Source of the DNA: a bacterium
GTDB lineage: Bacteria > SAR324 > NAC60-12
Length of the DNA stretch: 64,000 nucleotides
Assembly: GCA_965209155.1 (NCBI GenBank)
Contig: OZ242383.1
Coordinates: 4,194,201-4,258,200 of the forward strand
Direction of reading: 5' to 3'
The notes under the pieces were generated by a model. It ran no database searches. It saw nothing but the letters and a program-made list of their open reading frames with translations, and was not told the DNA's origin. The position numbers were made by a program, and so were the translations under genes. Shown one piece after another: positions 4,292 to 34,094 of the stretch (positions are counted from its first letter, which is position 1; each line of letters begins with the position of its first letter).

Positions 4292-5240
4292 ACCGCACCC
4301 TGGGGTCCAAATAGGGATAAATCAAGTCGATCAGGAGATTGAACCCCACCACTCCGGTGGCGAAAAACAGGTTCACTCCGGAGACCACCGGGTAGTCTCT
4401 GACTTCGAGGGCATCCAGCAAGAGGCGACCGATCCCCGGCAGGTTAAAGATGTTCTCCATGATCACGGAGCCACCTACCAGGATCGGCAACTGCAGGCCG
4501 ACCAGGGTGACGACCGGGATGAGGGCATTTTTGATGGTGTGCCGGATAATCACGATCCGCTCCCGGAGTCCCTTGGACCAGGCGGTGCGGATATAGTCCT
4601 GCCTTAAGACCTCCAGCATCATGGTGCGCGTCATCCGCATGGTGGCAGCCGCCGAGGCCGTCCCCAGAATCAGGCTGGGAATGAGGAACATGCCGAGATT
4701 CCCCAGCGGGTCTTCGGTGAACGAAACCAGCTCCATCGAGGGCGACCAACCCCACCAGATGGCCGGGTAGATCATGACCATGAGGGCGAGCCAGAAGTTA
4801 GGAGTTGCCAGGCCGATGATGGCGATGGAGCGCCCCAGGTAGTCCGCGGCCGTATCCTGGCGGATTGCCGAGTAGATGCCGACGGGCAGCGCGATCACGA
4901 GCCCAATGAGGATGGCCAGGACGCCCAGCTCCAGGGTGACGGGCAAACGATCGAAGAGCCGCTCCTCGATCCGCCAACTCCCCACCAGGGATTCACCCAG
5001 GGTGCCGCGCAGGAGGATGCCGCCGATCCAGCGTCCATACTGCACGTAGACAGGCACGTCTAATCCCAGCATATGCTCCAGCACTTCACGGTCAATCTTG
5101 CCGGCTTGTCCTTCAGCCCTTAGCACCATTACGTCTAGTACATCGCCGGGGATGAAGCGGACCGAGAGAAAGACCAGGATGCTCAGGATGAACAGGGTGG
5201 GGAGGATCAGCAATAACCGCCTGATGATATAGGCATTCAT
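4284..5240 (-). CDS. ABC transporter permease (DppB/OppB-like)
   Basis: ORF 4284..5321 trimmed to ATG at 5240 (N-terminus MNAYIIRRLLLILPTLF typical of DppB; GAGG SD upstream). Confidence 0.75.
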   Translation of the reverse strand: MNAYIIRRLLLILPTLFILSILVFLSVRFIPGDVLDVMVLRAEGQAGKIDREVLEHMLGLDVPVYVQYGRWIGGILLRGTLGESLVGSWRIEERLFDRLPVTLELGVLAILIGLVIALPVGIYSAIRQDTAADYLGRSIAIIGLATPNFWLALMVMIYPAIWWGWSPSMELVSFTEDPLGNLGMFLIPSLILGTASAAATMRMTRTMMLEVLRQDYIRTAWSKGLRERIVIIRHTIKNALIPVVTLVGLQLPILVGGSVIMENIFNLPGIGRLLLDALEVRDYPVVSGVNLFFATGVVGFNLLIDLIYPYLDPRVRYE

Positions 5241-5341
5241 GGGACGGACCTCATCATTTTTGAAATTGGTGTGGAAACGCGGGGTATCCTGGAGTGGAGT
5301 GGGCAGTACTGCCCGCTCCACAAGTGCTTCCAGTCGGCCTA

Positions 5342-7177
5342 TTACTGGGTTCTGTCCTTCAGCTCCTGGTCAATCCAAAGGCGGGCGAGAACTTCACGTT
5401 CGCCGAACTCTTCCAGTCTCATTTCACCGCTAAAACCTTTGACCCACGGCTGGTTCGCTATAAAAATTGGAGACATAGGACCCCATATCTGATTGTGCTG
5501 CTTTAGAATGAGCATATCCCACTCTTTGTATGCCCTCAGCTGCTCCTCATGGGTGGTAGCGGCGTAAAAGGCGTCATAGGCGGCGGTCAGCTCGGGGGTC
5601 TCGACTCCCCCCACGTTGTCGCGCCATATCTGCAGCCTCTGGCGATAATTAGCTACCCAAACTACAGGGTCACTATACATGCCCCCGTCGCCATCGCTTA
5701 TGTCCCACTGAATTAGGTCTTCTTGAGGGACATCCTCGGTACGCTCGCCCACACCCCTGCGATCGAACGCCCAACCTTGCGTGTCATATATCTCAATCTT
5801 TACCTCAACGCCAATCGCCTCCCAGTAGCCGACAGCTATTTCTCGATAGCCCAAATCATATATGTCGCGGTGGTCGAGGTCGACCTTGAATCGAACACCG
5901 TCCGCGCCCCGCGGATATCCAGCTTCATCGAGCAGCTTTTCGGCACCTTCCGGGTCATAAGCATAGTATTGCTTGAGATCTTCGGGAAAGTCTTCAAATG
6001 TGTTGACATATGGCTTGCTGGCAATCCCCCCCATAGGTTCCCACCTTGCAAGCCCGCCGTAGTAGGTATCGTTAATCGTCTCGAGGTCCAGTGCCATCTG
6101 CATTGCGTGGCGCACCCTGATGTCGTCAAAGGGTGGCTTTTTAATGTTCAGACTAAAGGTGGAGTCGGACCGCAGGAAATTGCTGCTCACTTGGATATCG
6201 GGGTTGGTACGCTGGAGGCTCCTTACCACGTCGAGGTTCCTTATATGAGTGCCCTGGCTATTGAATATGTCAACCTTGCCCGTGCGTAGTGCCGAGATAC
6301 GTGTTGCTTCTTCTTCCATGTGCAGGGCCCTCATCTGGTCAATATAGGGGAGGCGGTTCTCCGGGTACTTTTCGTCGTAGCGCCAGTAGTCAGGATTCTT
6401 TTCCCAGGTGATAGAGACGCCCTCGACATAGTCAGTCAGTATAAGGGGCCCGGTGCCGACCACGTTCTTCCAATCCTCATAGTTGCCGTATTTCTCGATT
6501 ACTTCGGGGGGTAATATCCACTGCATAGCATCGATGAGGATAGCCCTTAGCGCAATGAGGGATGGCTCCGTCATCTTCATAACAACCCTATATTTGTCGG
6601 TGGCCTCGATCGATTCCCACGGCAGGTCGATCGTTTTGGCAGGGATCTGGGGACGTTCGGTAAAGTCGCCCAGAGCGTTATGACGCTGCCAGCTATATAC
6701 GACATCATCGGCTGTGAGTTCCCGCCCGTTTACTAAGCGGCTGGCCTCACTGTCTGGATCAAGGGCGTAGTGTACTCCCGAGCGGATGTGGAAGATGTAA
6801 GTCAGTGGGTCAGGCATTTCCCAACTTTCCGCCAGGCTCCCTGTTATGGCAAAATCAGGGACGTAGGAGTCTCTAAAGTCATATACCTCCCTATCTACTC
6901 CCCAGTCCCCCCAGGCGAGACGCTCATTAACCTGGGCGATTTGGTAGCCCGCATTGACCCAGCTTTTTAGCGGGTCAGTAGTCTCCCCTACAAATACGTA
7001 GGGATAGGTCAATGTCCCGCCGTATTCTGGTGCGGTCACGACCTTACCCGTGCTCGGGTCGGTCACATATTTCTGGGCGGCAGCCGGGCTGACCCAAAAA
7101 GCGGCCACCATCAGGGTGAGGGTTATCATGAATAATGATTTGAATGATCGGATTGTACTGGTTTTTATAGTTTTCAT
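5342..7177 (-). CDS. ABC transporter substrate-binding protein, family 5 (peptide/nickel type)
   Basis: 611 aa with N-terminal signal peptide (MKTIKTSTIRSFKSLFMITLTLMVAAFWVSPAAA) and SBP family 5 length/composition; heads the SBP-permease-permease operon. Confidence 0.75.
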   Translation of the reverse strand: MKTIKTSTIRSFKSLFMITLTLMVAAFWVSPAAAQKYVTDPSTGKVVTAPEYGGTLTYPYVFVGETTDPLKSWVNAGYQIAQVNERLAWGDWGVDREVYDFRDSYVPDFAITGSLAESWEMPDPLTYIFHIRSGVHYALDPDSEASRLVNGRELTADDVVYSWQRHNALGDFTERPQIPAKTIDLPWESIEATDKYRVVMKMTEPSLIALRAILIDAMQWILPPEVIEKYGNYEDWKNVVGTGPLILTDYVEGVSITWEKNPDYWRYDEKYPENRLPYIDQMRALHMEEEATRISALRTGKVDIFNSQGTHIRNLDVVRSLQRTNPDIQVSSNFLRSDSTFSLNIKKPPFDDIRVRHAMQMALDLETINDTYYGGLARWEPMGGIASKPYVNTFEDFPEDLKQYYAYDPEGAEKLLDEAGYPRGADGVRFKVDLDHRDIYDLGYREIAVGYWEAIGVEVKIEIYDTQGWAFDRRGVGERTEDVPQEDLIQWDISDGDGGMYSDPVVWVANYRQRLQIWRDNVGGVETPELTAAYDAFYAATTHEEQLRAYKEWDMLILKQHNQIWGPMSPIFIANQPWVKGFSGEMRLEEFGEREVLARLWIDQELKDRTQ

Positions 7178-7205: not shown

Positions 7206-7417
7206 GTAACTATTCAGGTCTCTGAAAAACCCGTTCAGTTAAATATCATTAAAAAGATTCCCGGAGAGGAACGATCGTTTTCAAATCCTCCCACGATATT
7301 GTTCCATTGATCGGGAACCCTCTCTTTCACTAAAACAACTCAGTGAAGGCATGAGTTTAGCACTACTACTACTTGCGCAATGTCAACCCCATATTAAAAA
7401 AAAATGCAGGATTCGTA
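7206..7417. repeat. Left copy of ~212-bp imperfect inverted repeat bounding the 7.2-14.3 kb accessory block
   Basis: Reverse complement of 14068-14282 aligns over ~212 bp at roughly 88-90% identity (begins GTAACTATTCAGGTCTCTGAAAAACCCGTTCAGTTAAATATCATTAAAAAGATTCCCGGAGAGG); outer end is ~29 nt upstream of the SBP start codon. Confidence 0.8.
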
Positions 7418-9889: not shown

Positions 9890-10681
9890 TTATTTGCCTC
9901 CAATGAATTGGATTCCGTAATATGACACCACTTGCCCGTCGGAACCTACGATGGGAAAACTGCCTCGCGCGCTCCTTGCCAATGTAGAAGAGGGAAAAGC
10001 TACGCGTGCGCCAGACTTTGTACTGGACGGACCATTGATCTCCAAGAAATAAAGGTCCTTTGCAAAATCCAGCTTTTTATAATCATTGCTGGCCCCGGGA
10101 AGAGAGGTGAATGCCTTATAGATTTCCTCTAGAGGTACCACAGGTTCTTTGATTGAAGAACCGACAGAGGAGGGTTTAGCGCAGAGTTTGTAATTAAAGT
10201 ACAAAGCCTCCAAGAAGCGGTCTGAACGAAATCGGGGTGGTTTTTTCTGGTTATTGGTCAGGATGTCAGCAAGGTAAGACGGTCTCAACGTCGATACTTT
10301 TTTCCGATCAATTCTCACTACCTGACTCTCAGGTAAGATTTGAACAATAGACGGGTGAGAAATCAATGCGCCATCTCTTTCATAGAGGTTCAATCCCTTT
10401 CTTTCCGCTGTGTCACATAGCTCGGCAGCATAGTGTTCCTTGAGGTATTCTATCTCTTTTCCATCCTCAAAAGGCCATGTTTCTACCGCGTTTTCCACCT
10501 CCTGCCTTAGAGAACATAGAGCGCTGTTTAACTTTGAAGCAGCCTTTTTTAGTGCGCTGATATCCCCTTTCTTTGCTGCATTCCGTAAAACTCCGGCCAA
10601 CTTTGCAAGTTCTAATGCAGATTTCATTGTTGAATTTGCAGCTTTTTCCGTATCACTGAAGGCCCGTTCAAAGCTCGTCAT
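9890..10681 (-). CDS. Hypothetical protein (first gene of three-gene operon)
   Basis: 263-aa ORF with AAGGGG SD upstream, helical-looking N-terminal half; no recognisable family. Confidence 0.6.
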   Translation of the reverse strand: MTSFERAFSDTEKAANSTMKSALELAKLAGVLRNAAKKGDISALKKAASKLNSALCSLRQEVENAVETWPFEDGKEIEYLKEHYAAELCDTAERKGLNLYERDGALISHPSIVQILPESQVVRIDRKKVSTLRPSYLADILTNNQKKPPRFRSDRFLEALYFNYKLCAKPSSVGSSIKEPVVPLEEIYKAFTSLPGASNDYKKLDFAKDLYFLEINGPSSTKSGARVAFPSSTLARSARGSFPIVGSDGQVVSYYGIQFIGGK

Positions 10682-11604
10682 TATCTACCCCTTTGCTTCC
10701 GTTCATTTTCCCACAACCCAGCCTTGTCATGGTTTGTTGAGTTATAACCTTGATGTCATCTCGACCGCATGGAGAGATCCCAAGATTCCTCACGTTCGTT
10801 CGAAATGACACATTTTTAAATGGGATATAACCTAACGAACCATTACATCTTAGGGACTAAAATAGTGTTTTTTATAACCGTTTTTTGAGAAAATAGGCAA
10901 GCAAAAAAATCAGAAAAAGTTTGACAGTGATTTTTGAATATTTTTTTAACTGTTCATTGATTCAAATTAGCAGTGTTGAATCTTACGCAATCTTTGCTCA
11001 GATTTAAGAACCTGTTTAAAAATTACGTACTGCGTTTTAACATGAGTCGAATCATAGCGATATAGACAATGACTTCAGCAGTGTGAGCATATCTTTCATA
11101 ATCGGTATTTTGTCGATGATACTATCCAAACCAAGAAATGGTTCTTTCCACAATCCATCACAATATGTCGTTTCCGTCCCTTCACCTTTTTTCCTCCTTA
11201 AAACCCCCGGAACCTCGCTGTTTTTCTGCATTTTGATTTTCTCACTCATCTGTCTCCTTTCTCCTTTTCATCAAATTTCCTTGCTCCTATGTCCCTCCAC
11301 AGCTGTTCAAAATTGTCCTGCAATCATTTTATAAGTCTCCACCCGATCTTTCGCATTGATTCTTTCTCGGGATCTGCGTACCTTTTTCATACGATCTCCC
11401 TTCGTTGGGTTAAAGTTTTGCGTGGTCCATGAAACCACAACATAACGAATGTGAGTTCATTTTTCAGTTTTCAACTAATTTTTGGACATTTCCTACCTTT
11501 AGTCCTTCCAGAATATTTTCTTTTGTCAGTTATTTTAAGTCAATAGCTGTTTGGCAATAAAATTGCATGTCTTTTTAATGTCCATTTTTTTAAAAAGGAG
11601 GTAG

Positions 11605-11883
11605 ATGTATCAAAGCAATTTAAGCGATCAGCAATGGTCTGAGATTGAACATTTTTTTAGACGTTCCGATCCCCGAGGTGCCAAAAGTATTCATAGCAAA
11701 CATACCATCGTCAATGCGATTTTATATGTGTTGGAAACGGGTTGTCAGTGGAGACTGCTTCCCCACGATTTTCCTCCCTGGCAAACCGTTTACGATCATT
11801 ATCGCCGCTGGAATCAAAGAGGGATTTGGCAAGAGGTTTTGGATTTCCTCAATGCCCGCACTCGCGTGAAAGAGGGTTCTTAG
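11605..11883 (+). mobile_element. IS5-family (IS4/5 DUF4096-type) transposase N-terminal fragment, IS remnant
   Basis: 92 aa with the characteristic N-terminal region (NAILYVLETGCQWRLLPHDFPPWQTVYDHYRRWNQRGIWQEVL) but no DDE catalytic domain follows. Confidence 0.7.
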
Positions 11884-11935
11884 AGTCCTTCCAATGTTTT
11901 CTTTTTTGTCAGTCTTTTGACCTTATAGATGCCTT

Positions 11936-12367
11936 ATGTCCTCAGAAACTTCTCTGATTGAAAAGCTCCAACGCATTGAGCGACTTTATGAAGGAGCCAT
12001 CACAGAAGGGGAACGCCTTGCCGCTGAAGAAGCTCTGCAACGGATCGGGGAAAGATTGCGCAAGATTCAACAGAAGGATCCTGTGGTTGAATACAAATTC
12101 ACCTTTCCCGACTTCTGGAGGCGGCGTTTGTTTGTTGCTCTGCTGAGACGTTACGGGTTTCGTCCTTATCGTTATCGAGGGCAACGTCACACGACAGTGA
12201 TGACTCGAATATCGAAATCATTTGTGGATCAAACTCTCTGGCCGGTCTTTTTAGACTTGTCTGAAGCGTTGGTTTCCCACCTGGATGAGATCACCACCCG
12301 CATCATCCAACAAGCGATTTATTCCGATAGTTCTGAGGCAGAAGAAAGAGACATGCTGCCCGGTTAA
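11936..12367 (+). CDS. Hypothetical protein
   Basis: 143-aa ORF between IS fragment and methyltransferase fragment; charged, helical composition; no family recognised. Confidence 0.35.
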   Translation: MSSETSLIEKLQRIERLYEGAITEGERLAAEEALQRIGERLRKIQQKDPVVEYKFTFPDFWRRRLFVALLRRYGFRPYRYRGQRHTTVMTRISKSFVDQTLWPVFLDLSEALVSHLDEITTRIIQQAIYSDSSEAEERDMLPG

Positions 12368-12390
12368 CCCCTTGAAGTTTTTATTGCCGA

Positions 12391-12924
12391 TTGTATGCTT
12401 TCATTAGGCGTAACTGCAGAGTCCCGGACTGTTGGGGACTGAAGGATCGTGACCTGATGGGATTGCCTTGGCGAGTAGCATTTGCATTACAAGACGACGG
12501 ATGGTTGCTGCGCTCAAAAATCACCTGGCTGAAGAAAGCTCCTATGCCCGAAAGCGTCAAGAACCGACCGTCAAACGCCACAGAGGAAATCTTTCTGTTC
12601 TCAAAAAGTGCAAAATACTACTACAACAATCAGGCAGTGCGAGAAGAAACCGGCGCCAATCTCCGGAATTACTGGCTGTTGGGGACGGATGCTGGTGACA
12701 AGCTGCATCCCGCCGTTTTTCCAAAAGAATTGGCACGGCGCTGCATAATCTTGGGTAGCCGTCCCGGAGATGTGATTCTTGACCCGTTTTCAGGGTCGGG
12801 AACTACTGGCATAGCAGCGATCGAGTCAAATCGTCGCGTCGTCCTTATTGAATTGAACGAAGAATATGCGACACAATCCGAAACCCGGATAAATAAGGGC
12901 GTACAGCAAACCTTAGCTGTTTAG
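12391..12924 (+). pseudogene. N-truncated DNA methyltransferase (beta-class N6A/N4C type), C-terminal portion only
   Basis: Contains the region preceding motif I (LHPAVFPKELARRCI) and motif I itself (DPFSGSGTT) plus the upstream ITWLKK segment, but the DPPY-type catalytic motif that lies N-terminal in this class is absent. Confidence 0.6.
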
Positions 12925-14067: not shown

Positions 14068-14282
14068 TTTTTTTTACGAATCCTGCATTTTTTCATTTGG
14101 AGGTTGACATTTTGCAAGATATATTGCCAAAATCATGCCTTTACTAAGTTGTTTTAGTGAAAGAAAAGGTTCCCGATCGATTGAGCAATATCGTGGAAGG
14201 ACTTGAAAACGATCGGTCCTCTCCGGAAATCTTTTTTAATGATATTTAACTGAACGGGTTTTTCAGAGACCTGAATAGTTAC
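14068..14282. repeat. Right copy of ~212-bp imperfect inverted repeat bounding the accessory block
   Basis: Reverse-complement match to 7206-7417; outer end ~73 nt upstream of the lipoprotein start codon at 14355. Confidence 0.8.
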
Positions 14283-14354
14283 GTTTTTACTTACTGAAAT
14301 ATAATTCATTTTAGCGTAACTTTTGTTAAAATACCTTTCCCTGGAGAAATTATT

Positions 14355-15341
14355 ATGACGGATACGCCACATGCAACTCCTCAAGATCATAATCAGGATA
14401 TGCTTCCTGCAAAGTTCGTTTTGAATAAATACCGGATCATTTTCGTAGCATTAACGCTTGTCGCGGTCGGCCTCGCCGCATGCGGCGGTGGAAAATCAGG
14501 ATCGGATCCCCTTAGTAGCCTTGAAAGCATCAGAGAACTGACTGGCATGACGGCACCGGTAGAGAAGCCCGCGGCGCAAAAAGCACGAGCACCAGGTATT
14601 GCCTCGCGATCCGACTCTCTGATCATCTCTACGACGTACGTGGAAACGAGCGACGATGAACTTCCCACTTTTAGCTTCGGGGCGCAGTGCGCCGGTACTC
14701 GGTGCACGATATCGGAGCCCAGGATCGGATACGTCAGGACCGTTACCCTGTCTGAACTCGAGACCATAACCCTGTCTGAACTCGAGATCGTGGACGGCTC
14801 TCCTGAAGCAGTTGGAACCAAGCACGGCATCACCCTGATGTCGGTAACCGGCCGGCGCATGGACGATGAGTTCACTACGTTTGGAGCATGGATGGCGCAT
14901 GGCGGGTTTCAGGTTGAGACCGCGCGTGTGGTAATCCCGGATGATATCAGGATGAACCTCGTCTCCGGCCTCGCTTTGGGTGATCTCACGGGCAGCCGTC
15001 CAAGAGGGAGCGCAACGTGGATCGGTCTTATGGTTGGAACGCCTGCCACAGGGGATAACCTCGGAGACAGGCTGCAGGGAGATGCGGCCTTGAACTACGA
15101 CATGAGCGCCGGCGGTGGGCTCGACGTCGGTTTCAGCAGTATCAAGAACATCGACCGTGGCACGGCGCACACGACATCCACAGTGCTATTCGCAGACGTT
15201 CCAATCAGTTCGAGTGGGACGTTTGAAGCAGGCCATGCTGGCAACCGCATCCAGGGCGGTTTCTACGGTCCTGATCACATTGAGGCTGCTGGAATTTTCG
15301 AGCAGTCAAACATCGTCGGAGCCTTCGGAGCAAAACGATGA
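14355..15341 (+). CDS. Surface lipoprotein with TbpB-like C-terminal beta-barrel (handle) domain
   Basis: Lipobox (VAVGLAACGGG) after a signal peptide; C-terminus NRIQGGFYGPDHIEAAGIFEQSNIVGAFGAKR matches the terminal motif of transferrin-binding-protein-B-like lipoproteins. Confidence 0.55.
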   Translation: MTDTPHATPQDHNQDMLPAKFVLNKYRIIFVALTLVAVGLAACGGGKSGSDPLSSLESIRELTGMTAPVEKPAAQKARAPGIASRSDSLIISTTYVETSDDELPTFSFGAQCAGTRCTISEPRIGYVRTVTLSELETITLSELEIVDGSPEAVGTKHGITLMSVTGRRMDDEFTTFGAWMAHGGFQVETARVVIPDDIRMNLVSGLALGDLTGSRPRGSATWIGLMVGTPATGDNLGDRLQGDAALNYDMSAGGGLDVGFSSIKNIDRGTAHTTSTVLFADVPISSSGTFEAGHAGNRIQGGFYGPDHIEAAGIFEQSNIVGAFGAKR

Positions 15342-15498
15342 TGAAAGAATCATTCACTAACGAAAATGCAAAGAAAGGGCTCAATTCTCAGAAGAAATCG
15401 GCTTGTTGGCTGGATCGATCAAAGGGTGACCGGTTGAAGAATTTGATGGTTTTTATATTTTGTGTTTCTTGGTCTCCTCGATTTTGTTGTGGTTCGTT

Positions 15499-15885
15499 TC
15501 AGTCTTTGTTTTGTTTTTCAAGATAGCGCTGAATCTCTTCCAGAGAAATCCGTTTGAGGATCTCAACGGGCGAAAGTCCTTTCAGGCGATCATCGGCCGA
15601 AAAGCGTTTGAGGACTTCATCAGTCGAAAAGCGTTTGAGGACCTCATCGGTCGAAAGCACACCCAAATGATCACGCACATAATCTTTTTGAAAATCTTCC
15701 ATCGTATAGGCCATCTCTAATCCCTCCAATTGATAGTTCTCAAAGAGTTGATTTAATATCGTACTGATTTCCCGGGTATGCCCTCGGTATTGACGCGAGG
15801 CAAATTCCACTTCTCCGGGAATGCCACTGAATAAATGCCAAATCGCATTATGCTCCGCATGAGCGATCTCACTCAGTACAATCAT
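15499..15885 (-). CDS. Hypothetical protein with tandem TDEVLKRFS-type repeats, possibly a gene fragment
   Basis: 128-aa ORF; ~30-bp tandem coding repeats at about 15540-15690; reading frame stays open upstream of the first Met, suggesting truncation. Confidence 0.3.
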   Translation of the reverse strand: MIVLSEIAHAEHNAIWHLFSGIPGEVEFASRQYRGHTREISTILNQLFENYQLEGLEMAYTMEDFQKDYVRDHLGVLSTDEVLKRFSTDEVLKRFSADDRLKGLSPVEILKRISLEEIQRYLEKQNKD

Positions 15886-16140
15886 CCGAATGAGATCACT
15901 CCCCCGCTGAATCTCATATGAAAGCGTTCTGGCTAGAAAGTTTGGAAAAGTAGCGTTTTTTTCTTATTCAAATCGATTTTACTTTCCTTTTCGCTTGTTT
16001 CTGAAAATGGCTCGTCAACCACGCCTTTACTATCCTGGCGCGCTTTAGCATGTGAATCTTCGTGGCCATGGAGGGCAAACCTTTTTTTCTGTCCTTCCTA
16101 CTATCGACAATTTTATCACTTGCTCCCAGATGGTTCCCAA

Positions 16141-16640
16141 TGCTTTGATCACCGGATTCACGCCTTTTGCTTAATGAGCAATCGTGTTCCTCCCTACTCT
16201 CTTCCTCTTTGAAGACAGATCATTCATCAAATGGATCGAGTTTATCAACTACCGGAGAATGAATTAACCCGAGTTCGACATAAATCTTCAATAATAGGAG
16301 TATTCTGGCGTTTATGTCTTTCCGGGCGCAGACCCGAAATCCAGATTTCAGTCTGGCTGCATACCTCTGGATTCCTGGTCAAGCCAGGAATGACACGTTT
16401 TCTCTACAGTCACGAAAGTCGAGTGAAGCCCGCGCGATGATTAGCCTGTTGGCTGTCGATTGGAAGTCCGCCACTATTCGAGTAGTCGGAAAATTTTAAA
16501 TTGAGATGATTTGACGATCAGCTTTGCTATGCACCAGTTGCGACAACGATTGAAGGAATCCGAGGGTCTCCAAATTCAATTAGAGGAACTAAAACGTCAA
16601 ATACTTGCTTGAAGTTTCAAACTTTCAGGCCTGACTCCTT
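16141..16640 (+). repeat. Dispersed ~500-bp repeat, element X copy 1
   Basis: Near-identical to 18060-18556 and, over its 3-prime ~240 bp, to 21961-22200; contains an embedded REP-like hairpin unit. Confidence 0.75.
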
Positions 16641-16833
16641 TTTTTTCACTCCTATAAAGAATTTCATAAGGTGAAGTAGATGTCTGGCCTATGTAGTTCT
16701 GAAAACCGCCGTTATAGCCCATGTAAAAATTCCCGTCCAAATCGCTTGAGTAACCGGGGCGACTGTCTTTCTCAACTCGCTTTTGGTTGTCTACAAAATC
16801 GGACTGTATTTTTATTTCTCGTTTCTTCGCCAT
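16597..16833 (-). CDS. Small hypothetical protein
   Basis: 78-aa ORF with AAGGGAAAG SD, just downstream of the lipoprotein gene; last codons run into element X. Confidence 0.3.
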   Translation of the reverse strand: MAKKREIKIQSDFVDNQKRVEKDSRPGYSSDLDGNFYMGYNGGFQNYIGQTSTSPYEILYRSEKKGVRPESLKLQASI

Positions 16834-17990: not shown

Positions 17991-18009
17991 AACACATTCT
18001 AAAGGAACT

Positions 18010-18556
18010 GAAACGTCCAATACCTACTTGAAGTTTCAAACTTTCAGGCCTGACTCCTTTTTCATTATCACCGGATTCACGCTTTTTACTTAATGAGCAA
18101 TCATGTTCCTCCCTGCTCTCTTCCTCTTTGAGGACGGATCATTCATCAAGAGGCTCGAGTTTATCAACTACCGGAGAATGAATTAACCCGAGTTCGACAT
18201 AAATCTTCAATAATAGGAGTATCCTGGCGTTTATGTCATTCCGGGCGAAGACCCGGAATCCAGGTTTCAGTCTGGCTGCATACCTCTGGATTCCTGGTCA
18301 AGCCTGGAATGACACGTTTTCTCTGCAGTCACGAAAGTCGAGTGAAGCCCGCGCGATGATTGACCTGTTGGCATTCGATTGGAAGTCCGCAACAATTCGG
18401 GAGGTCGGAAACGTTTTCAATCGAGATGATTAAACGATTAGGTTTGGAGTGCACCGCTTGAGACCACGATTGAAGGAATCCGAAAGTCTCCAAATTCAAT
18501 TAGAGGAACTGAAACATCAAATACTTGCTTGAAGTTCCAAACTTTCAAACCAGACC
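18010..18556 (+). repeat. Dispersed repeat, element X copy 2 (with tail of an additional copy at its 5-prime end)
   Basis: Aligns with 16141-16640 along nearly the full length; the tail motif CTTGAAGTTTCAAACTTTCAGGCCTGACTCC is present at both ends. Confidence 0.75.
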
Positions 18557-18713
18557 TTGGTACTCACCAATCCCCGCGATATCTGACCGGGTGGAACGAT
18601 ATTCCTTCATCCGGCATTATTTCCAATTTATTTAAATGTTCCTATTATTGAATCAGTCTTTTTATCATAGACCTCAATTGTAGTTGCCAAAATAAACATT
18701 CTGAAATTTTCAT

Positions 18714-19834: not shown

Positions 19835-20326
19835 TCACAATTCATTTTTTACTATTTCCTGAATAATTTTTTTAAATCTCTTAAATTCAATCTTTAATTC
19901 TTGTATAGTTTTATCTAATTCAACCATGTTCTTTCTGGAATTCATTTTAAATTCTTCATACGTCATATCAGGATCATATGTAGGTGATAATCGGACACTA
20001 ATAAAAAGAAGAACAAATGAACAAATAAAAACAACAAATGCTCGCTTTCGAGTTGGCAAGTACAAACGAGAAATGGGGTACAACATACAAATAAACGATA
20101 TTATACTAATGATCATAAAGACAAATACTAAAATAATACTTATTTCTTCCATTGTAGGTGGTAATTGGACACTAATAAAAAAAAGAACAAATGAACAAAT
20201 AAAAACAACAAATGCCCGCTTTCGAGTTGGCAAGTACAAACGAGAAATGGGGTACAACATACAAATAAACGATATTATACCAATGATCATACAGACAAAT
20301 ACTAAAATAATGCTTATTTCTTCCAT
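19835..20326 (-). CDS. Membrane protein with internal tandem duplication
   Basis: 163 aa; a ~58-aa unit with a transmembrane helix (MEEISIILVFV...RKRAFVVFICSFVL) occurs twice, from a direct ~186-bp DNA tandem repeat; opposite-strand ORF 19926..20594 judged a shadow. Confidence 0.45.
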   Translation of the reverse strand: MEEISIILVFVCMIIGIISFICMLYPISRLYLPTRKRAFVVFICSFVLFFISVQLPPTMEEISIILVFVFMIISIISFICMLYPISRLYLPTRKRAFVVFICSFVLLFISVRLSPTYDPDMTYEEFKMNSRKNMVELDKTIQELKIEFKRFKKIIQEIVKNEL

Positions 20327-20759: not shown

Positions 20760-21020
20760 TCATGATTTATCTGAATATTCATCAGCCAGGATGCGATAGG
20801 CATAGTCAATGTCTTCCGGATCTTGAGTTTTAAAATACCTGCCCATTTCGTAACCCAGACTGATCCACGTAATATAATTTAAATCAACCGTATCCAATCT
20901 TTTCCCTTTCCAGCCATCACGGAATGCTGATTGTTTATCCTCCGTAGGTGGCTCACGATTATCGGCAAATTTTTCCTCTTGTAATTCCCGAAGACGATTT
21001 AATACATTTTGATATCTCAT
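20760..21020 (-). CDS. Small protein, paralog family member
   Basis: 86 aa; NLTWxSLGYEMG...DPEDIDY...RILADEY core shared with its tandem neighbour. Confidence 0.5.
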   Translation of the reverse strand: MRYQNVLNRLRELQEEKFADNREPPTEDKQSAFRDGWKGKRLDTVDLNYITWISLGYEMGRYFKTQDPEDIDYAYRILADEYSDKS

Positions 21021-21286
21021 TATTCCCTATTATTTTTTGAATATTCATCAGCCAGGATGCGATAGACATAGTCAATATCTTCCGGATCTTGAGTTTTAAA
21101 ATACTTGCCCATTTCGTAACCCAGACTTTTCCACGTGAGGTTATTCGGATTTAATCTTGATATTCCTTTTCCAAACCATGCTTGTCGAAATGCTGATTGT
21201 TTATGCTCCGTAGGTGGCTCACGCTTTTCGACAGGCTTTTCCTCTTTTAATTCCTGAAGACGATTTAAGATTTCTGAATATTTCAT
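21020..21286 (-). CDS. Small protein, paralog family member
   Basis: 88 aa; tandem with 20760..21020, overlapping stop/start (translational coupling). Confidence 0.5.
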   Translation of the reverse strand: MKYSEILNRLQELKEEKPVEKREPPTEHKQSAFRQAWFGKGISRLNPNNLTWKSLGYEMGKYFKTQDPEDIDYVYRILADEYSKNNRE

Positions 21287-21383
21287 AATTCTCCTTTATC
21301 TTTAAGATTTTTCCTTAGGATTTTAAGCAGATATAAAACGTTTTGATATCTGCTTGGTACTCCTTAGAATTAAGATTTGAATA

Positions 21384-21700
21384 TAAAAAAACACTTGAAA
21401 AAATTTGCAAAAGGAGATTGAGCTGGGTTAGTATTTTTGATTGCCGAAAGGAGGATATAAAAAAAGCCCGTCTTCCCTCATGGGAAAATTCTTGAAAAAC
21501 ATTGCCGTGTTTCTCAAGGATATGATGGGTGTCCTGCTCCTCCTTTGGCCTTCTTGCTTTCCTGTCATTTCCTCCCTTTCATCGATGACCGGGCGGCCAA
21601 CTCACTGGGTCTTTCCCTTTTTACCAGGTTATCGATGACGCCAGCAAACTTGGTTTCCGTGTTGGTGAACCTTTTGTTAAGGAAAAAGAAGTTAAGAAAT
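21384..21700 (+). repeat. Dispersed ~320-bp repeat, element Y copy 1 (promoter-like)
   Basis: Shares with 22915-23250 and 25317-25650 a TTGCAA-N17-TAGTAT-like motif followed by an 11-bp inverted repeat CCAAAGGAGGA ... TCCTCCTTTGG about 85 nt apart. Confidence 0.65.
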
Positions 21701-21960
21701 CTGGTTCAATTTATCTTTCAGATCCGATACCTGTTCCGATGAAATTGGAATTGAAAATTCCCCATAAGGAATATTTGACATGGGTACAGGATGAGAGAGT
21801 GGCTTCCTGGGCCGAATCAAAAGCATTTTAGAATTTTCTTCATCTTCTTTAATACTGACATCTGCTTCAAATTTAACATTCAACGTTACTTGTGAATTTT
21901 TATCCATATTTATCTTCTTTTTTTTTGAAATCGATATTGATTAATTTTTCTCTGTACTTT

Positions 21961-22200
21961 TGAAGGAGTTGAGTAAAACCCGCACGATGATTGGCTCGTT
22001 GGCTTTCGATTGGAAGTCCGCAACGATTTGGGAGATCAAAAAATTTGCAATCGAGATGATTCTATGATCAGCATTGGAATTCGTCGGTTGAGACCAAGAT
22101 TGAAGGAATCCGAGGGTCTCCAATTTCAATTAGAGAAACTGAAACGTCAAATACTTGCTTGAAGTTTCAAACTTTCTGGCCTGCCCCCTTTTCAATATGA
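21961..22200 (+). repeat. Element X copy 3 (3-prime ~240 bp only)
   Basis: Aligns with the 3-prime half of 16141-16640. Confidence 0.65.
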
Positions 22201-22213: not shown

Positions 22214-22891
22214 TTAAAGACCTGTAATGAATAGAATGAAATAACCATCATATTTAATTAATTTTTCAATTCCATAAGTAGGGATGCCTATAGTAAAATC
22301 AGAACGAACCTCCATAGAATTTGTTTGAGTAGGAACGTCATTAATATAAACACCAAAATAACCGATTGATAGAGGTCTTTCATACGGAATTATTTTGAAT
22401 CGGATTTTAAAATCTGATAATTGAATAAATGATGCAGCAGATGATTCAAAAAAACTTTCCATTTTCACACGTAGTTCGGGGGGGAAATGTAAACCTAGCG
22501 TCCTAACGCCTTCATCATTAGGGAAATAAGTAATATTAATTATTTCTTCATCAACATATTTACCATCCCTTTCTTTATCTAAAAAAGCGGGAATCGAAAA
22601 AGAGACCATATGTTTAAATAGTCCTTTTTCTTCACATCCTAAATATTCTGCCCCTTTGAAAATAAAAGGAATTTTTGCTTGTAATTCAAAAACTGTATCT
22701 TCTGGCAAATTACTTTTGCTCTTAGTACATCCCTGAACTTCAATATTCATAATTCCATTAACCTCTATCGGATCTGTCCCTTCTTTAGCAAAATTAGCGA
22801 GGTCGATTTCCATAAATAAATCTAGATCACAACCTGAAATCAAAACTACAATTAATAACAAACCCAATATGCTGAAAATTGACTTTTTCAT
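22214..22891 (-). CDS. Hypothetical lipoprotein (paralog of 23258..23911)
   Basis: ORF 22214..22903 trimmed to MKKSIFSILGLLLIVVLISGC (lipobox); GGAG SD upstream. Confidence 0.55.
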   Translation of the reverse strand: MKKSIFSILGLLLIVVLISGCDLDLFMEIDLANFAKEGTDPIEVNGIMNIEVQGCTKSKSNLPEDTVFELQAKIPFIFKGAEYLGCEEKGLFKHMVSFSIPAFLDKERDGKYVDEEIINITYFPNDEGVRTLGLHFPPELRVKMESFFESSAASFIQLSDFKIRFKIIPYERPLSIGYFGVYINDVPTQTNSMEVRSDFTIGIPTYGIEKLIKYDGYFILFITGL

Positions 22892-22914
22892 ATCAAACTC
22901 CAAATATAATTTAT

Positions 22915-23250
22915 CAAATAATACTTAAAAAGTTTGCAAAACAGGATTGACAGGGTTAGTATTTTTGGTTGCCAAAGGAGGAAATAAAAAAGCCCGTCCT
23001 CCCTCTTTGGGAATTTCTTGAAAAACATTGCCGTGTTTCTCAAGGATATGATGGGTGTCCTGCTCCTCCTTTGGCCTTCTTGCTATCCTGTCATTTCCTT
23101 CCTTTCCTTAAAGACCGGGCGGTAAACTCACCGTGTCTTTCCCTGTTTACCAGGTTATCGATGTTGCCAGCAAACTTGGCTTCCATCTTTGTAAATCTTT
23201 CGCAATCTCTTCCGCTTTCCGATGAATCATTTCAGAAATTTTCTGTCATT
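22915..23250 (+). repeat. Element Y copy 2
   Basis: See 21384-21700; lies between the two paralogous lipoprotein genes. Confidence 0.65.
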
Positions 23251-23257
23251 GAAATTG

Positions 23258-23911
23258 TTAAAAATTGTATGATTGAGTACTGAATACGACAAATTCCTTC
23301 ATTTCATTTGATAACAAAACCCTTGTCCCGTAATGGGGTATTCTTACAGAGAACTCAGAATTCAGTGTAGTATCTATAAATTGGTATGGTTTATCATTCA
23401 AATACACTCCCATTCCTTTTACATTCAATGGAGTCAAATCGGGTAAGATTTGGAATTTTATATTAATATCATCCATTTTTATTTCATCAGACGCAGATAT
23501 TAACAAATTCAATTTCCCTTTTAATCCTGGAGGAAATGAAAAAATTAATTCTCTTTCACCATTTTCAAGTTTAAAATATTCTAAATTTGATATTTCATCA
23601 TCCACTGGTTTGTCATTGTCATTATTATCAATATAAACTGGAATTTCAAATAACAAGTAATAGTCAAAACCCGAACGATCACAATCCTCATATTTTGCCC
23701 ATTTGAAGACATAAAGTAATTGTTCTTTTAATTTACTGACATCATCACTATCACACACATTAACTTCCACTGCCAATCGACCTTTTATAAGAGTTGATTT
23801 ACCATCATCAGTAAATAGATTGAGATTAACTGGTATATCAATAAAAATATCACAACTGGCTATAACTAAAGATATTACTAGTAATTTTATACAACAAACA
23901 ATCTTCCTCAT
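23258..23911 (-). CDS. Hypothetical lipoprotein (paralog of 22214..22891)
   Basis: ORF 23258..23956 trimmed to MRKIVCCIKLLVISLVIASC (lipobox); shares domain order and several motifs with the neighbouring lipoprotein. Confidence 0.5.
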   Translation of the reverse strand: MRKIVCCIKLLVISLVIASCDIFIDIPVNLNLFTDDGKSTLIKGRLAVEVNVCDSDDVSKLKEQLLYVFKWAKYEDCDRSGFDYYLLFEIPVYIDNNDNDKPVDDEISNLEYFKLENGERELIFSFPPGLKGKLNLLISASDEIKMDDINIKFQILPDLTPLNVKGMGVYLNDKPYQFIDTTLNSEFSVRIPHYGTRVLLSNEMKEFVVFSTQSYNF

Positions 23912-24106
23912 AAGACATTCTCCATGAAAATAATTGCAAATGAATATGGTCAGCATAGTAAAAATTGAAATTGTTCTTGAAGCTATTCAATTTGAAGAAA
24001 AAATTATTTTTGGCTGAGCTGCTTGAAATCGGATTCGCCCAACGTTTAGCTTCAATTGTTTTTTTTTGGAAAAATCCCCAGCTCAATCAACAAACTATCA
24101 TCTCCT

Positions 24107-25159
24107 CTAAGACGAATGCATTTGCCAAGCAAGCATCAACTGCAATGCGCGCTTCTGCAAAACCGGATCTTTAGGAGCTTTTATCCTTCCTTCAGAATCA
24201 AATACAATTCCTAATGATGGATATTGAAAAAATCTCTCCAAATCTGGATCAAAATCAGGCTTAAGATCGCCTTTATAACCATCCCACAGGACCAAAGGCG
24301 GTAGATCCGCGTTCAATTCAAGCTCCGTCCACATGGGCGAGTGATCGCTCACCCCCGACTTCCGGTATTTGTGGCAGTAACCGCAGGCTTTGAGATCGAA
24401 ATGTCTCGATACGAAAGTGTGGTCGTAACATTTCGGAGAGCCTTTTGTGACGTGGGTGACTGGGGTTCTGGCAAAACCGTGGAGAGCGCGATAGGCGTCG
24501 CGCAGACCATGCCGTGATGCGCCGGCGAGGACGGAACGCACAGGGTCGTCCCATTCCTTACCCGAACCCCTGCGACCGTAACCGTCTGCCCATTCTTTGC
24601 AAAGGTATGGGACCCCATTTTTGTCTATATTTTCGCCCCAAGTCACAACCTGTCCGGAACTGCGAAATTCTCGCGGCTCATTGAAATCACCGGTCAGGAT
24701 TCGTGGCGAGTCGTTCCCCTCGCGAAGCGCCGCCAACAAGACGTTGAAGGTGTCGATTTTCGACCAGCCATTGCCGGAACCATTGGGGATGTGGACCGTG
24801 AAGAGCTCGACGTCTCCCTCCGGTAGTTCGATCATCGCTCGCCCCAGTATCTCCGGGTAAGGCGCACCCTTGCGCCATGTATCGTCGACAGGACTTAATG
24901 GCCACTTGCTCGCGATGAGACATTGATATTTCTTCTTATACTTAATCAGCCATTTTGGATTATCAGGCGCATCTTTGCCGCTGTTCAAGGAGTGTTTGAG
25001 TCCAAGTCCGGCGAGGCACTTCGCCATCTCATCCGCGAGCTCCGACTTGACCTCCTGCAATGTGACCAGGTCCGGCTTTACGGCGCCAATGGCTTTAACA
25101 ACCAGATGTAAGTTTTTAGGCAAGGTATTAAATTTAACGTTCCAGGAAAGTAGTCTCAT
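24107..25159 (-). CDS. Endonuclease/exonuclease/phosphatase (EEP) family protein
   Basis: 350 aa; EEP-type N-terminus (LLSWNVKFNT...DLVTLQEV) and conserved C-terminal SDHSP; ~100-aa C-terminal extension of unknown function. Confidence 0.6.
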   Translation of the reverse strand: MRLLSWNVKFNTLPKNLHLVVKAIGAVKPDLVTLQEVKSELADEMAKCLAGLGLKHSLNSGKDAPDNPKWLIKYKKKYQCLIASKWPLSPVDDTWRKGAPYPEILGRAMIELPEGDVELFTVHIPNGSGNGWSKIDTFNVLLAALREGNDSPRILTGDFNEPREFRSSGQVVTWGENIDKNGVPYLCKEWADGYGRRGSGKEWDDPVRSVLAGASRHGLRDAYRALHGFARTPVTHVTKGSPKCYDHTFVSRHFDLKACGYCHKYRKSGVSDHSPMWTELELNADLPPLVLWDGYKGDLKPDFDPDLERFFQYPSLGIVFDSEGRIKAPKDPVLQKRALQLMLAWQMHSS

Positions 25160-25316
25160 GAAAGGCTCACGTGCTTATCCAGTGAAATTCCATGGCTGTT
25201 TGTATGCAAAGAATTCAGGGTTCCCATCCAATCATCGATACGATATTCTCCCGCCAATACAGGCGAGGGATTCTTTTTTCTCATCACTTAGCGACCTTTC
25301 TTGCAACTCGGAAAAC

Positions 25317-25650
25317 TATAAAAAGTTTGCAAAACAGGATTGAGAGGGTTAGTATTCTTGGTTGCCAAAGGAGGAAATAAAAAAGCCCGTCCTCCCTCAT
25401 GGGGAAATTCTTGAAAAACATTGCCGTGTTTCTCAAGGATATGATGGGTGTGCTGCTCCTCCTTTGGCCTTCCTATTATCCTGTCATGCCTTTCCTTTCA
25501 TTGAAGACTGGGTGCCAAACTCATCTGGTTTTGATCTGGTTGCCAGGTTATTGATGAGGCCAGCCAACCTGATTTCAATGTTGGCGAAGCTTTTGTTTGA
25601 GGTTTTGTCACCTGGTCCCATATTGTCAAACTTGTCACCCAATCGTCGGA
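25317..25650 (+). repeat. Element Y copy 3
   Basis: See 21384-21700; located upstream of and divergent from the EEP gene. Confidence 0.65.
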
Positions 25651-26189
25651 ATCCCTGATCCGAGTTGGCTGTCCCACCGACCGAGTGTTTCCCTTTGAAG
25701 ATGGCATACGTGGTTCATGCGCGTGTATCTTCTTCCTGGAATTTCATTTTTACGTGGCAATCTGTTTCTCGATGGCGCTGTGATAAAAAGGTTGCATTCG
25801 ACGTCCGTATGGGGACGCCGGGTTATAGCAACGCAACCTAATCTAGGAGGAAGGCCCGACTATTTGTCCAGAATGGAGTGGCCAAACTCCAATCAGATTA
25901 GGGACTATTCTATTCATCGGGTAACCCGACAAATAAATTAAGTCGCGTTGCTGTTCACACTATGAATGAATGATTTAGAGATGTCAATATACTTTTCCAA
26001 AAAAATATAATCTTTATTTTACGAAAAGACGCTCGACTCCGGTGAGCATTACTGAGTGGAAGGCAATTGCCTGGAAATATCAATGTCCCGGGGCCTATGG
26101 ACTCCGCAGACGGTCGTTTACATATTATCCATTACATTCCCTATGATTTGATCCTGGTACGCTTTGGTGTGAGTCCGTAGATCCTCTCT

Positions 26190-26650
26190 ATGTCATTCCT
26201 GTGCAAGTGGGAATCCAGGGAATCGAAATGACCCCTGGATTCCGGGTCTTCGCAAGGAATGACACATTCTTGGATTCGGGGTCTTCGCCTGGAATGACAT
26301 CCTCCTGGATTAGCGGTATTCGTTTGGAAAGACACGTTCATGGATTCCTGGTCTGTGCAAGGAATGACACATTCTTGGATTACTGGTCTGTGCCAGGAAT
26401 GACACATTCTTGGATTACTGGTCTTCGCCAGGAATGACACATTCTTGGTGTGGTGTTTTTCGCTTGGAATGACACGTTCCTGGATTACTGGTCTTCGCCA
26501 GGATTGACATCCTCCTGGATTAGTGGTATTCGCCAGGAATAACACATTCTTGGATTAGTGGTATTCGTTTGTAATGACATGTTCCTGGATTTCTGGTCTT
26601 CGCAAGGAATGACACGTTCCTGGATTCCTGATCTGTGCAAGGAATGACAA
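26190..26650 (+). repeat. Tandem array of ~12 REP-like 35-bp hairpin units
   Basis: Contiguous degenerate units of consensus TGGATTCCGGGTCTTCGCCAGGAATGACACATTCT, each with an internal inverted repeat; no unique spacers. Confidence 0.8.
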
Positions 26651-26679
26651 CGCTGCGAATAGCCGGAAGGGTTTCTGCC

Positions 26680-27906
26680 TCAGCGGACGAATTTGCGGAC
26701 GAGATTGAGGGGTTGCGCGTTGCCGGCGGTTGGAAGCACCACCAGGCTGCTCGCCTGGCAGTTGGGAATCGGTTGGTGGCGGATATTCTTCAAGTCACCC
26801 GCGGGCAAAGGGATGGTGCTTCCATCAAAGGAAAGAATTTCAAGAAAGTCCTGGTAGCAGAACGGATTTTGCGCGAGCAGGGTCATGTAACGAGATTTTA
26901 CTTCAACCAGGGTTCCCGCCATTTCATAGCGTGCATTGTTTATTCCCAGCCCTTCATTGTCGTTATAAATACTGTCCGCACCTGCAGGCTGCGTCAAGGA
27001 GCCTTGCGTATACGGGCGGTGAGGGACTTTTTCCAGTTCCGCGGACAGGGGGGGCAGGTCGACCTCCATTTCCCCTGGTCGTTCCCGGTACTTTCTCAAT
27101 GCGGCGGCATAGGTCCGGACGGTCGTGGCCACGTAGAGATTGCTTTTCATGCGTCCTTCAATTTTGAGACTGCAAACCCCCGCCTTCACGAATCGAGGGA
27201 GGAGTGCCAGACCCTGTAAATCTTTGGAACTCATGAAAGTCGTTTTCTCGAATGAAGGGTCCCGTCCGCGCTCTTGATCTTTTTTATTCTCCCGGATGGA
27301 ATAAGAAAAGCGGCAGCTTTGCGCGCAACCTCCTCGATTGCTGTCCCGGCCCAGGGTGTAATTGGAAATGGTGCAGTTGCCGGAATAGGCCATGCACATC
27401 GAGCCGTGGATGAACATTTCCACTTCGATGCCGGCTCGTTCCCGGATGACCCGCGCCTGGTCGATGGAAAGTTCACGTCCCAGAACAATACGCTTCACTC
27501 CCAGGTTTTTCCATAGCACGGCCGCCTGGGAGTTCAAACAGGAAGCCTGGGTGGAGAGGTGGATGGCGAGGTTGGAATGGCGTTGCGCCACCGAAAGCAT
27601 TCCCGCATCCGAAACGATCACGGCGTCGACACCGCAAGATTCCAGAAATTTGACGTAATCCGGGAGATCGAGCAACTCTTCATCGTGGGGGAAGGAATTC
27701 AAAGTAACGTAAACTTTCACGCCTCGTTGTTGGGCAAACGCGACTCCTTCCTCCATGTCCTCGTCCGAAAAATTATCCGTCCCGGCACGCAAGCCGAAGC
27801 AAGGCCCGGCCAGGTAGACCGCATCCGCTCCGTACAATACGGCAATTTTCAATTTTTCCAGGTTGCCGGCCGGTGCCAGCAATTCGGGGATTGCCTGGGG
27901 CTTCAT
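26680..27906 (-). CDS. Peptidase U32 family protein
   Basis: 408 aa; N-terminus ELLAPAGNLEKLKIAVLYGADAVYLAG typical of the U32 family; conserved cysteine-containing core. Confidence 0.75.
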   Translation of the reverse strand: MKPQAIPELLAPAGNLEKLKIAVLYGADAVYLAGPCFGLRAGTDNFSDEDMEEGVAFAQQRGVKVYVTLNSFPHDEELLDLPDYVKFLESCGVDAVIVSDAGMLSVAQRHSNLAIHLSTQASCLNSQAAVLWKNLGVKRIVLGRELSIDQARVIRERAGIEVEMFIHGSMCMAYSGNCTISNYTLGRDSNRGGCAQSCRFSYSIRENKKDQERGRDPSFEKTTFMSSKDLQGLALLPRFVKAGVCSLKIEGRMKSNLYVATTVRTYAAALRKYRERPGEMEVDLPPLSAELEKVPHRPYTQGSLTQPAGADSIYNDNEGLGINNARYEMAGTLVEVKSRYMTLLAQNPFCYQDFLEILSFDGSTIPLPAGDLKNIRHQPIPNCQASSLVVLPTAGNAQPLNLVRKFVR

Positions 27907-29096: not shown

Positions 29097-29204
29097 GGAT
29101 GGTTGAACCGGTATGTCTCGGGAATGGGATAGCGCATTACGGCAAGAGCCGGGAAGAACGGTACCCACCGATGCGCCGGGTTACCCTGCCGTCCCCGCGA
29201 GCGC

Positions 29205-34075: not shown

Positions 34076-34094
34076 TCCCGAAAACGTCCTTTAC

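Follow-up and report, generated by a model that had tools for sequence, protein, structure and literature searches.

The dispersed repeat designated element X, several copies of which lie in a 64-kb stretch of a SAR324 bacterial genome (contig OZ242383.1, positions 4,194,201 to 4,258,200; hereafter the window), very probably represents fossil copies of a non-autonomous TIRtron deletion derivative (probability about 0.9). The names TIRtron and TIRYT are those of Di Nocera et al. (2013; PMC3733652), who describe a Y1 RAYT-like protein and flanking inverted repeats (IRs) with the motif GGGGWSAS. Coordinates given here are positions in the window, and L-numbered loci (L002-L016) are related contigs, including loci of the metagenome-assembled genome (MAG) CBDBHR01.

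By six-frame translation, the repeat was recognized as decayed + strand coding sequence, with the readable pieces MARQPRLYYPGAL*HVNLRGHGGQ, DHRIHAFCLMSN and ...EARAMISLLAVDWKSATIR...LRQRLKESEGLQIQLEELKRQILA* (asterisks, stop codons). Pfam and NCBIfam searches of the raw decayed fragments returned no Y1_Tnp match and a weak match to the DnaA C-terminus alone (E = 0.002), so that a homologue search was needed for identification. The stitched translation, used as a query, recovered 11 metagenomic relatives with 60-77% identity, one of which (P0008) carries both PF01797 (Y1_Tnp) and PF08299 (Bac_DnaA_C), and an intact gene for a 312-amino-acid (aa) protein (P0026) was located at L003:14720-15658. 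This protein has an HUH motif of the form NHVH (HVH) and the tyrosine motif YIHLNP. A composite near-identical to P0026 matched Y1_Tnp at E = 1.2e-14 and Bac_DnaA_C at E = 1.2e-6, the matches to the latter profile ranging from 1.2e-6 to 2.8e-9. The 312-aa protein also matched the NCBIfam model NF047646 (REP_Tyr_transpos) at 70.4 bits (E = 1.5e-19; the NCBI cut-off is 80 bits) and the C-terminus of TIGR00362 (DnaA; E = 5e-10), and its C-terminal region matched structures of DnaA domain IV in PDB (3pvp and 1j1v, E ~1e-3). In public assemblies, the protein is represented by 40 distinct variants at 90% identity or more.

The parent unit is about 1,060 bp (1.06 kb) long and is intact in related metagenome contigs and in one MAG. 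Homology to the gene region of L003 begins approximately 80 bp upstream of the ATG and ends approximately 30 bp past the stop codon, and these boundaries fall on identical bases in independent loci, indicating a discrete unit. The parent is an insertion sequence (IS)-like unit encoding a 312-aa TIRYT protein with an N-terminal Y1/HUH domain, of the kind found in RAYT-like single-strand DNA transposases, and a C-terminal helix-turn-helix (HTH) resembling DnaA domain IV. Intact units in L002, L003 and L005 are bounded by terminal IRs of 22-31 nt that are 90-95% complementary (left, AAAGGGGGTCAGGCTTGAAAGTTTGG; right, CCAAACTTTCAAGCCTGACCCCATTT) and begin GGGGTCAG (AAA-GGGGTCAGGCTTGAAAGTTTG); some 60 bp separate the left repeat from the start codon downstream of it, and the right one begins a few bases after the stop codon. 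A 1062-nt reference element (ref), the reverse complement of L005:578-1639 with its open reading frame (ORF) at 91-1029, was used for the alignments below.

Each window copy aligns to the parent unit on the + strand. In tblastn searches with the 312-aa protein, copy A covers aa 1-61, 216-240 and 245-312, copy B covers aa 49-61, 216-240 and 245-312, and copy C covers aa 247-312; at the nucleotide level, copy A matches the reference element in three pieces (15928-16187, 16192-16267 and 16407-16642). A repeat search of the whole window and blastn to the reference element thus bore out the dispersed repeat of the original prediction, recovering copies A and B, a partial copy C and an additional short piece, the tail, at a level far above chance. 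The repeat search grouped them as families D6 (16148-16447 and 18067-18366; 300 nt, 94% identity), D5 (16417-16642, 18337-18562 and 21967-22192) and D9 (a 63-nt unit at 16581, 18000, 18501 and 22131). A scan of the window for the terminal IR pattern found one left end and four right ends (copies A, B and C and the tail) against 0.03 expected, and copy A is the only window copy that keeps both ends. In copy A, the equivalents of GGGGWSAS are mutated, reading GCGTTCTG on the left and, as the reverse complement, GGAGTCAG on the right. The element ends showed no significant self-folding, and a hairpin at the right end did not exceed shuffled sequence in stability (z = -0.4 to -1.3). A Y1-like motif detected by tblastn at 39576-39614 was discarded as a chance match within a pentapeptide-repeat gene.

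These alignments change the extent and meaning of the repeat as first described. Because both IR ends were found, at 15921-15947 and 16615-16641, copy A spans 15921-16646, extending 215 nt upstream of the proposed start at 16141, which corresponds to the start of the truncated 5' end of copy B. The supposed conserved 5' end, ATCACCGGATTCACGC, is internal coding sequence (the codons for DHRIHAF); the conserved 3' end does exist, its identity being the stop codon together with the right terminal IR. Copies A and B, described as near-identical, share 89% identity overall in a gapped alignment and 94-95% over the first ~300 nt only.

Deletion, probable dispersal and decay of element X

Copies A and B have in common a 459-bp deletion, an inserted doublet of repetitive extragenic palindromic (REP) units and a stop codon, PL*. 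Lost with the deletion are the second His of HUH, the tyrosine motif (Y---NP) and the remaining catalytic core; of the HUH motif, the window copies keep the first His alone. The junction, ref 276|736, was found in window copies A and B, in L003 (twice), L008, L009 and L010 and in L011 (twice), on contigs that differ from one another and with different neighbouring sequences. Because one and the same junction is shared by unrelated loci on four other, unrelated contigs, the deleted form appears to have spread as a non-autonomous element, and because the junction shows only weak microhomology, the deletion is likelier to have arisen once and then dispersed than to have recurred. Such dispersal would be the behaviour of a derivative resembling a miniature inverted-repeat transposable element (MITE). 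Of the three identities originally offered for element X, a non-autonomous mobile element therefore came closest, in that it is a transposase-less, IR-bounded derivative; what had been missed was its decayed + strand coding nature and its true ends.

A probable history is that the deletion arose once, at weak microhomology, and that the deleted element, having kept both IRs, was mobilized in trans by full-length copies. In the lineage of the window, one such copy would then have gained the REP-doublet insertion and the stop codon, and this copy would have been duplicated into A and B at about the time when the L009 strain split off (~11% divergence). Copy B, copy C and the tail would have lost their 5' parts through illegitimate recombination or aberrant end-joining. 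The tail adjoins copy B with 5 nt between them, and a comparable arrangement is present in L015: at two independent junctions (L015:5880-5990 and window 18037-18075), the right end of a TIRtron is fused to the interior of another copy, at ref 196 in L015 and ref 233 in the window, and the interior begins ...TTT(T/G)|ATCAC in both. These fusions could reflect either a deletion at microhomology between copies in tandem or the aberrant joining of ends by the transposase.

The age of the window copies can be judged against L009, which is syntenic with the window at ~90% identity. The PL* stop codon is common to A, B and the L009 copy orthologous to A (L009A), and the insertion is likewise matched in L009A (L009:3784-3922). 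Copy C is orthologous to L009:5980-6209 and has the identical truncation point, whereas L009 lacks the segment that carries copy B. A recent duplication of A to give B was ruled out: A, B and L009A are equidistant (25/22/26 informative sites), so that copy B is of the same age as the strain split. Conservation of the element does not exceed that of the adjoining DNA: it is 89% identical to its L009 orthologues, and the flanks are 89-91% identical. In all window copies, additional stops or frameshifts interrupt the HTH region, and the ratio of nonsynonymous to synonymous substitution (Ka/Ks) is 0.5-0.6, versus 0.32-0.35 for full-length copies. Neither a catalytic core nor an uninterrupted frame was found in any window copy, and the ends of the only two-ended one, copy A, are just 74% complementary. 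The window copies are thus dead, with nothing active today, the catalytic domain and an intact HTH frame both being absent.

The original prediction of an embedded REP-like hairpin was substantiated by folding and by a REP census of the window. The doublet forms an extended hairpin (in copy B, -25.5 kcal/mol, z = -7), and the corresponding REP family (consensus GGATTCCNGG-N6-CCNGGAATGA) has 21 matches in the window against 0.12 expected, most of them within tandem arrays. This family is unrelated to the IR of the element, and within element X it is a secondary insertion alone. The ~50-nt head (…TTCGACATAAATCTTCAATAATAGGAGTATTCTGGCGTTTATGTC) that precedes the doublet in A (16268-16318) and B (18187-18237) also stands alone in other intergenic sites, at 51818-51869 (-), 61055-61092 (-) and ~27930-27985, the site at 51.8 kb lying between two ABC-transporter genes; it may be a separate small dispersed repeat.

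The copies are located in an island of small hypothetical genes with 33-39% GC, between flanks of 45-55% GC. Local duplications in the island comprise 19979-20326, 20767-21303 and the pair 19763-19871/20530-20638, together with a 174-nt tandem duplication within the ORF at 19835-20326 and adjacent paralogous genes of 86 and 88 aa (20760-21020 and 21020-21286) with homologues in L009. This low-GC island evolves by duplication and cassette shuffling, and within it the window copies are at most passive stretches of homology in a strain-variable setting.

Table 1. Positions of the element X copies, their parts and the segments syntenic with L009 (ref, position in the reference element).
Feature	Window position	Strand	Description	Basis or counterpart
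Copy A	15921..16646	+	IR-to-IR complete, decayed, internally deleted TIRtron derivative	blastn, ref 12-272, 736-811, 823-1059
Copy B	18067..18556	+	5'-truncated, without left IR	blastn, ref 233-272, 736-811, insertion, 821-1053
Copy C	21967..22192	+	5'-truncated, frameshifted relic	ref 833-1059 (aa 247-312 and right IR)
Tail	18000..18061	+	lone right-end fragment	ref 998-1059 (final 10 codons, stop codon and right IR)
TIRYT pseudogene, copy A	16007..16612	+	start 16007, stop at codon 14, frameshifts, original TGA 16610-16612	six-frame translation, tblastn, projected translations
Left IR, copy A	15921..15947	+	decayed AAAGCGTTCTGGCTAGAAAGTTTGGAA; 27 nt, 74% complementary to 16615-16641	pattern match, 3 mismatches
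Right IR, copy A	16615..16641	+	TTTCAAACTTTCAGGCCTGACTCCTTT	inverted-pair search and terminal IR pattern scan
Deletion junction, copy A	16188..16191	+	in-frame loss of 459 bp (153 codons)	ref 277-735, codons 63-215
Deletion junction, copy B	18107-18110	+	matches copy A junction	
Insertion, copy A	16268..16406	+	139 bp: ~50-nt head, then two inverted REP units (REPIN-like doublet)	in place of ref 812-822
Insertion, copy B	18187-18323	+	counterpart of copy A insertion	
Syntenic flank	14347-15884			L009 1-1502
Syntenic segment (copy A)	15921-16643		89% identity	L009 3437-4159
Syntenic segment (copy C included)	21292-22196		89% identity	L009 5303-6211
Syntenic flank	22916-29307			L009 7367-14129

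Alternative roles for the copies

Truncated transposases are established as inhibitors in other transposons, such as Inh of Tn5 and KP of the P element, and the short in-frame-deleted ORF (the N-terminal 62 aa plus the DnaA-like HTH, ~160 aa) might likewise be a working gene, encoding a repressor of transposition, for instance, or a domesticated DNA-binding regulator, with the window copies as members of its family. The loss of exactly 153 codons, the open frame kept in several relatives (P0001, 177 aa; P0002, 160 aa; P0004, 139 aa) and the 34 distinct sequence variants of the short forms would be in keeping with such a gene. However, the HTH region of all three window copies is interrupted, many of the short ORFs begin at internal methionines of truncated copies, and the Ka/Ks of the deletion derivatives (0.5-0.8) is at the level of the dead window copies and above that of the full-length genes, giving no sign that the short ORF has been maintained; a functional product is therefore very unlikely. 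An even smaller chance is left for a functional non-coding module, whether a shared 3' untranslated region (UTR) or terminator or a small RNA, at the 3' ends of convergent minus-strand genes. Each copy is arranged tail-to-tail with a minus-strand ORF, the REP doublet of A and B forms a very stable hairpin, and REPs affect mRNA stability according to Di Nocera et al. (2013; PMC3733652). On the other hand, no terminator-like site was detected in any copy, no Rfam family reached its gathering threshold anywhere in the window, and RNAalifold on 14 copies gave an unfavourable covariation term (+1.99) with 1 of 64 pairs compensatory, so that the covariance check proposed with the original prediction yielded no conserved RNA structure. 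Furthermore, the right-end hairpin does no better than shuffles, the REP doublet is missing from copy C, the copies match their L009 orthologues no more closely than the flanks do, and the sequence is accounted for base by base as decayed coding DNA. The placement immediately 3' of three minus-strand genes is a loose description, closest to the case of copy C, whose distance from a supported gene (DUF7424) is at most 22 nt: copy A overlaps an unsupported 78-aa ORF, the stop codon of which had been used to place the copy and which itself overlaps the right IR, and copy B ends 158 nt before the stop codon at 18714, the gap to the upstream stop codon thus ranging from overlap to 158 nt. Among related copies, about 6 of 10 have a downstream neighbour in convergent orientation, compared with roughly half by chance, and placement 3' of minus-strand genes is not distinctive.

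It is also conceivable, though unlikely, that the copies serve as recombination anchors, direct repeats that drive the gain, loss and exchange of small minus-strand cassettes much as an integron would, though with no integrase. Copy A forms an island of homology, both flanks of which differ among the window, L009 and L008 right up to the IR ends; the segment with copy B is missing from L009; every copy is in direct orientation inside the low-GC island; and in L012, L015 and L016, element-adjacent DNA differs between strains that are 99.5% identical. Nevertheless, no rearrangement breakpoint was directly seen inside any copy, the breakpoints observed fall at the element ends, where transposase action or independent insertions would fit equally, and the comparison covered only three genomes. 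Since any dispersed repeat has such an effect passively, it would be a consequence and not a function.

Several points weigh against the interpretation of element X as fossils of a mobile deletion derivative. TIRtron transposition is itself an inference in the two papers on these elements (PMC3733652; PMC6006769) and has never been demonstrated experimentally, and mobilization in trans cannot be shown for this genome, as tblastn found no intact TIRYT-family gene in the 64-kb window. Copy B cannot have been brought in as it stands by ordinary transposition because its left IR is missing. No pair of empty and filled sites was found among the related loci compared, and the termini, the target site and the lack of a target duplication consequently rest on a handful of insertions. 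Lastly, A, B and L009A are 93-95% identical to one another in the REP insertion, with 7-10 differences over 140 columns, versus 85-91% in the remaining element, a small difference for which the interpretation does not account.

At the level of the window, the importance of these fossils is small and is a matter of annotation: the copies should be annotated as transposase pseudogenes and mobile-element relics and not as a regulatory RNA or UTR module, and the ORFs that overlap element X (16231-16440, 16314-16499, 18233-18433, 22010-22162 and the 3' end of 16597-16833) are suspect.

The TIRYT family in related loci and among known systems

Quentin et al. (2018; PMC6006769) place TIRtron/TIRYT in subclass 2.1.2 of TnpA(Y1) class 2, and the TIRYT class has a C-terminal HTH extension of the Bac_DnaA_C, HTH_23 or HTH_28 type. 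The family described here has all the architectural features of a TIRtron: its protein (P0026) is RAYT-like, of the Y1/HUH type with Y---NP, and ends in a Bac_DnaA_C-type HTH, and its gene is flanked not by REP hairpins but by terminal IRs whose start, GGGGTCAG, fits the published GGGGWSAS. According to Quentin et al. (2018; PMC6006769), class-2 genes occur in few copies per genome, and these copies are poorly conserved relative to one another, a property that is not part of a strict definition. By contrast, the present family has at least five near-identical full-length copies on one MAG contig, in addition to tandem and many partial or deleted copies. The difference from published class 2 thus lies in behaviour and not in architecture, and it is the IS-like signature, many near-identical copies plus partial copies, that Quentin et al. 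used for IS200 (PMC6006769). The window differs again in containing dead, transposase-less deletion derivatives alone, and the earlier papers report families of inverted repeats alone and not internally deleted derivatives that keep both of them.

The family shares with REPtrons the Y1/HUH fold, a gene flanked by inverted copies of a short repeat and the existence of non-autonomous derivatives (REPINs in the case of REPtrons). Assignment to RAYT/REPtrons was rejected, however, as the protein scores below the 80-bit cut-off and the flanking repeats are not self-complementary REP hairpins and are unrelated to the REPs of the window. IS200/IS605 elements are similar in their PF01797 Y1/HUH domain, small size, near-identical multiple copies, partial copies and lack of a consistent target-site duplication, but they have subterminal hairpins, no terminal IRs and a TnpA of ~130-150 aa with Y---Q and no HTH, whereas this family has IRs of 22-31 nt, end hairpins that are not significant and a 312-aa protein with Y---NP and a DnaA-like HTH; membership of this group was likewise rejected. 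The deletion derivatives are MITE-like in having an internal deletion, both IRs, no working transposase, one junction across loci and a length of ~410-720 bp, and they differ from MITEs in that the parent enzyme is a tyrosine HUH and not a DDE enzyme, no target duplication is evident, the in-frame deletion leaves a potential 160-aa ORF and the copy numbers seen are modest. Element X is a further case of a known but poorly studied class of elements and an ordinary kind of genomic fossil.

The right-end pattern was found in a single species-representative genome, on MAG contig CBDBHR010000029.1, and no further copies were found in viral contigs or JGI metagenome contigs. On the CBDBHR01 contig, at least five full-length copies with unrelated flanks are 99.3-100% identical to the reference, which was taken from one of them. 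In L012, L015 and L016, where the flanks are 99.5% identical, near-identical strains differ in element content, the differences being located next to the elements and comprising tandem copies, one copy interrupted by a DDE IS and, in L016, a deletion of 440 bp with one end exactly at a left IR; L015 has three copies within 7 kb. An excess of 5'-truncated copies retaining the right end, a possible signature of rolling-circle transposition, was not significant: among copies not used as search seeds, ~6 had the right end only and 3 were left-end-only or solo. No consistent target-site duplication was observed, as TCTAAAA flanks the element on both sides in L002 but not in L004, L005 or L007a. The left A-run and right T-run more probably belong to the inverted repeat itself, and the lack of a consistent target duplication would fit an HUH enzyme.

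In three independent copies (L006:~4460-6400, L007:~5560-6250 and L008:~10490-12420; Rfam RF02005, 156-171 bits), a group II intron adjoins a truncated TIRtron IR at one identical base (...TACGGTGAC|TGAAAGTTTGG), twice at the left end and once at the right end, and the intron of L008 has an RVT_1 ORF. Given this recurrence, the IR of the element is an apparent homing site of the intron.

On balance, we lean slightly towards the view that the TIRYT family is an active, autonomous and undomesticated IS, which moves an IR-bounded unit, mobilizes the deletion derivative in trans and is a homing target of a group II intron. TIRYT/TIRtron elements have barely been studied and their mobility is conjectural, and this side evidence for active, IS-like behaviour in class 2 is the most interesting part of the analysis. 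If the view is correct, TIRtrons would offer a living and tractable link from IS200-type elements to the domesticated RAYT/REP systems, and the DnaA-like HTH would be a candidate module for recognition of the inverted repeat. The related loci offer testable material in the form of near-identical multicopy full-length units with defined ends, strain polymorphisms at the element ends and a group II intron that targets the inverted repeat, and the natural mini-element of ~600 bp, with both IRs and no catalytic core, is suited to trans-mobilization assays.

Other repeats of the window

In addition to the doublets in element X, REP units form tandem arrays at 26200-26720, 33895-34110 and 43830-44055, with periods of 35 nt and 43 nt and no spacers, and single units are located near 28030-28061, 48761-48791 and 57784-57815. 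No RAYT gene was seen in the window, and the orthologous REP array of L009 has a different number of units.

A 275-nt repeat with 75-85% identity between copies is located at 21400-21674, 22926-23200 and 25319-25593, three copies also being present in L009. It lies directly upstream of minus-strand lipoprotein-like paralogues (22214-22903, the DUF7424 gene, and 23258-23956) and includes a terminator-like hairpin on the minus strand (21488-21471), the sole strong example in this region. The repeat might be a common 5' region or mark the boundary of a cassette.

Two further inverted pairs bracket larger segments. A 567-nt pair with 98% identity (47243-47809 and 63080-63646) encloses ~15 kb and has partial copies at 1430-1743; its copies contain internal 42-nt inverted repeats rich in CGTGCTCGTGCTCGTGAACG, and the family is unrelated to element X. 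The other pair (7206-7365 and 14122-14282; 50 nt at 100% plus 115 nt at 88%) encloses ~6.8 kb just upstream of the element X region, and a sequence similar to it is present in the MAG locus L004 at 3532-3746.

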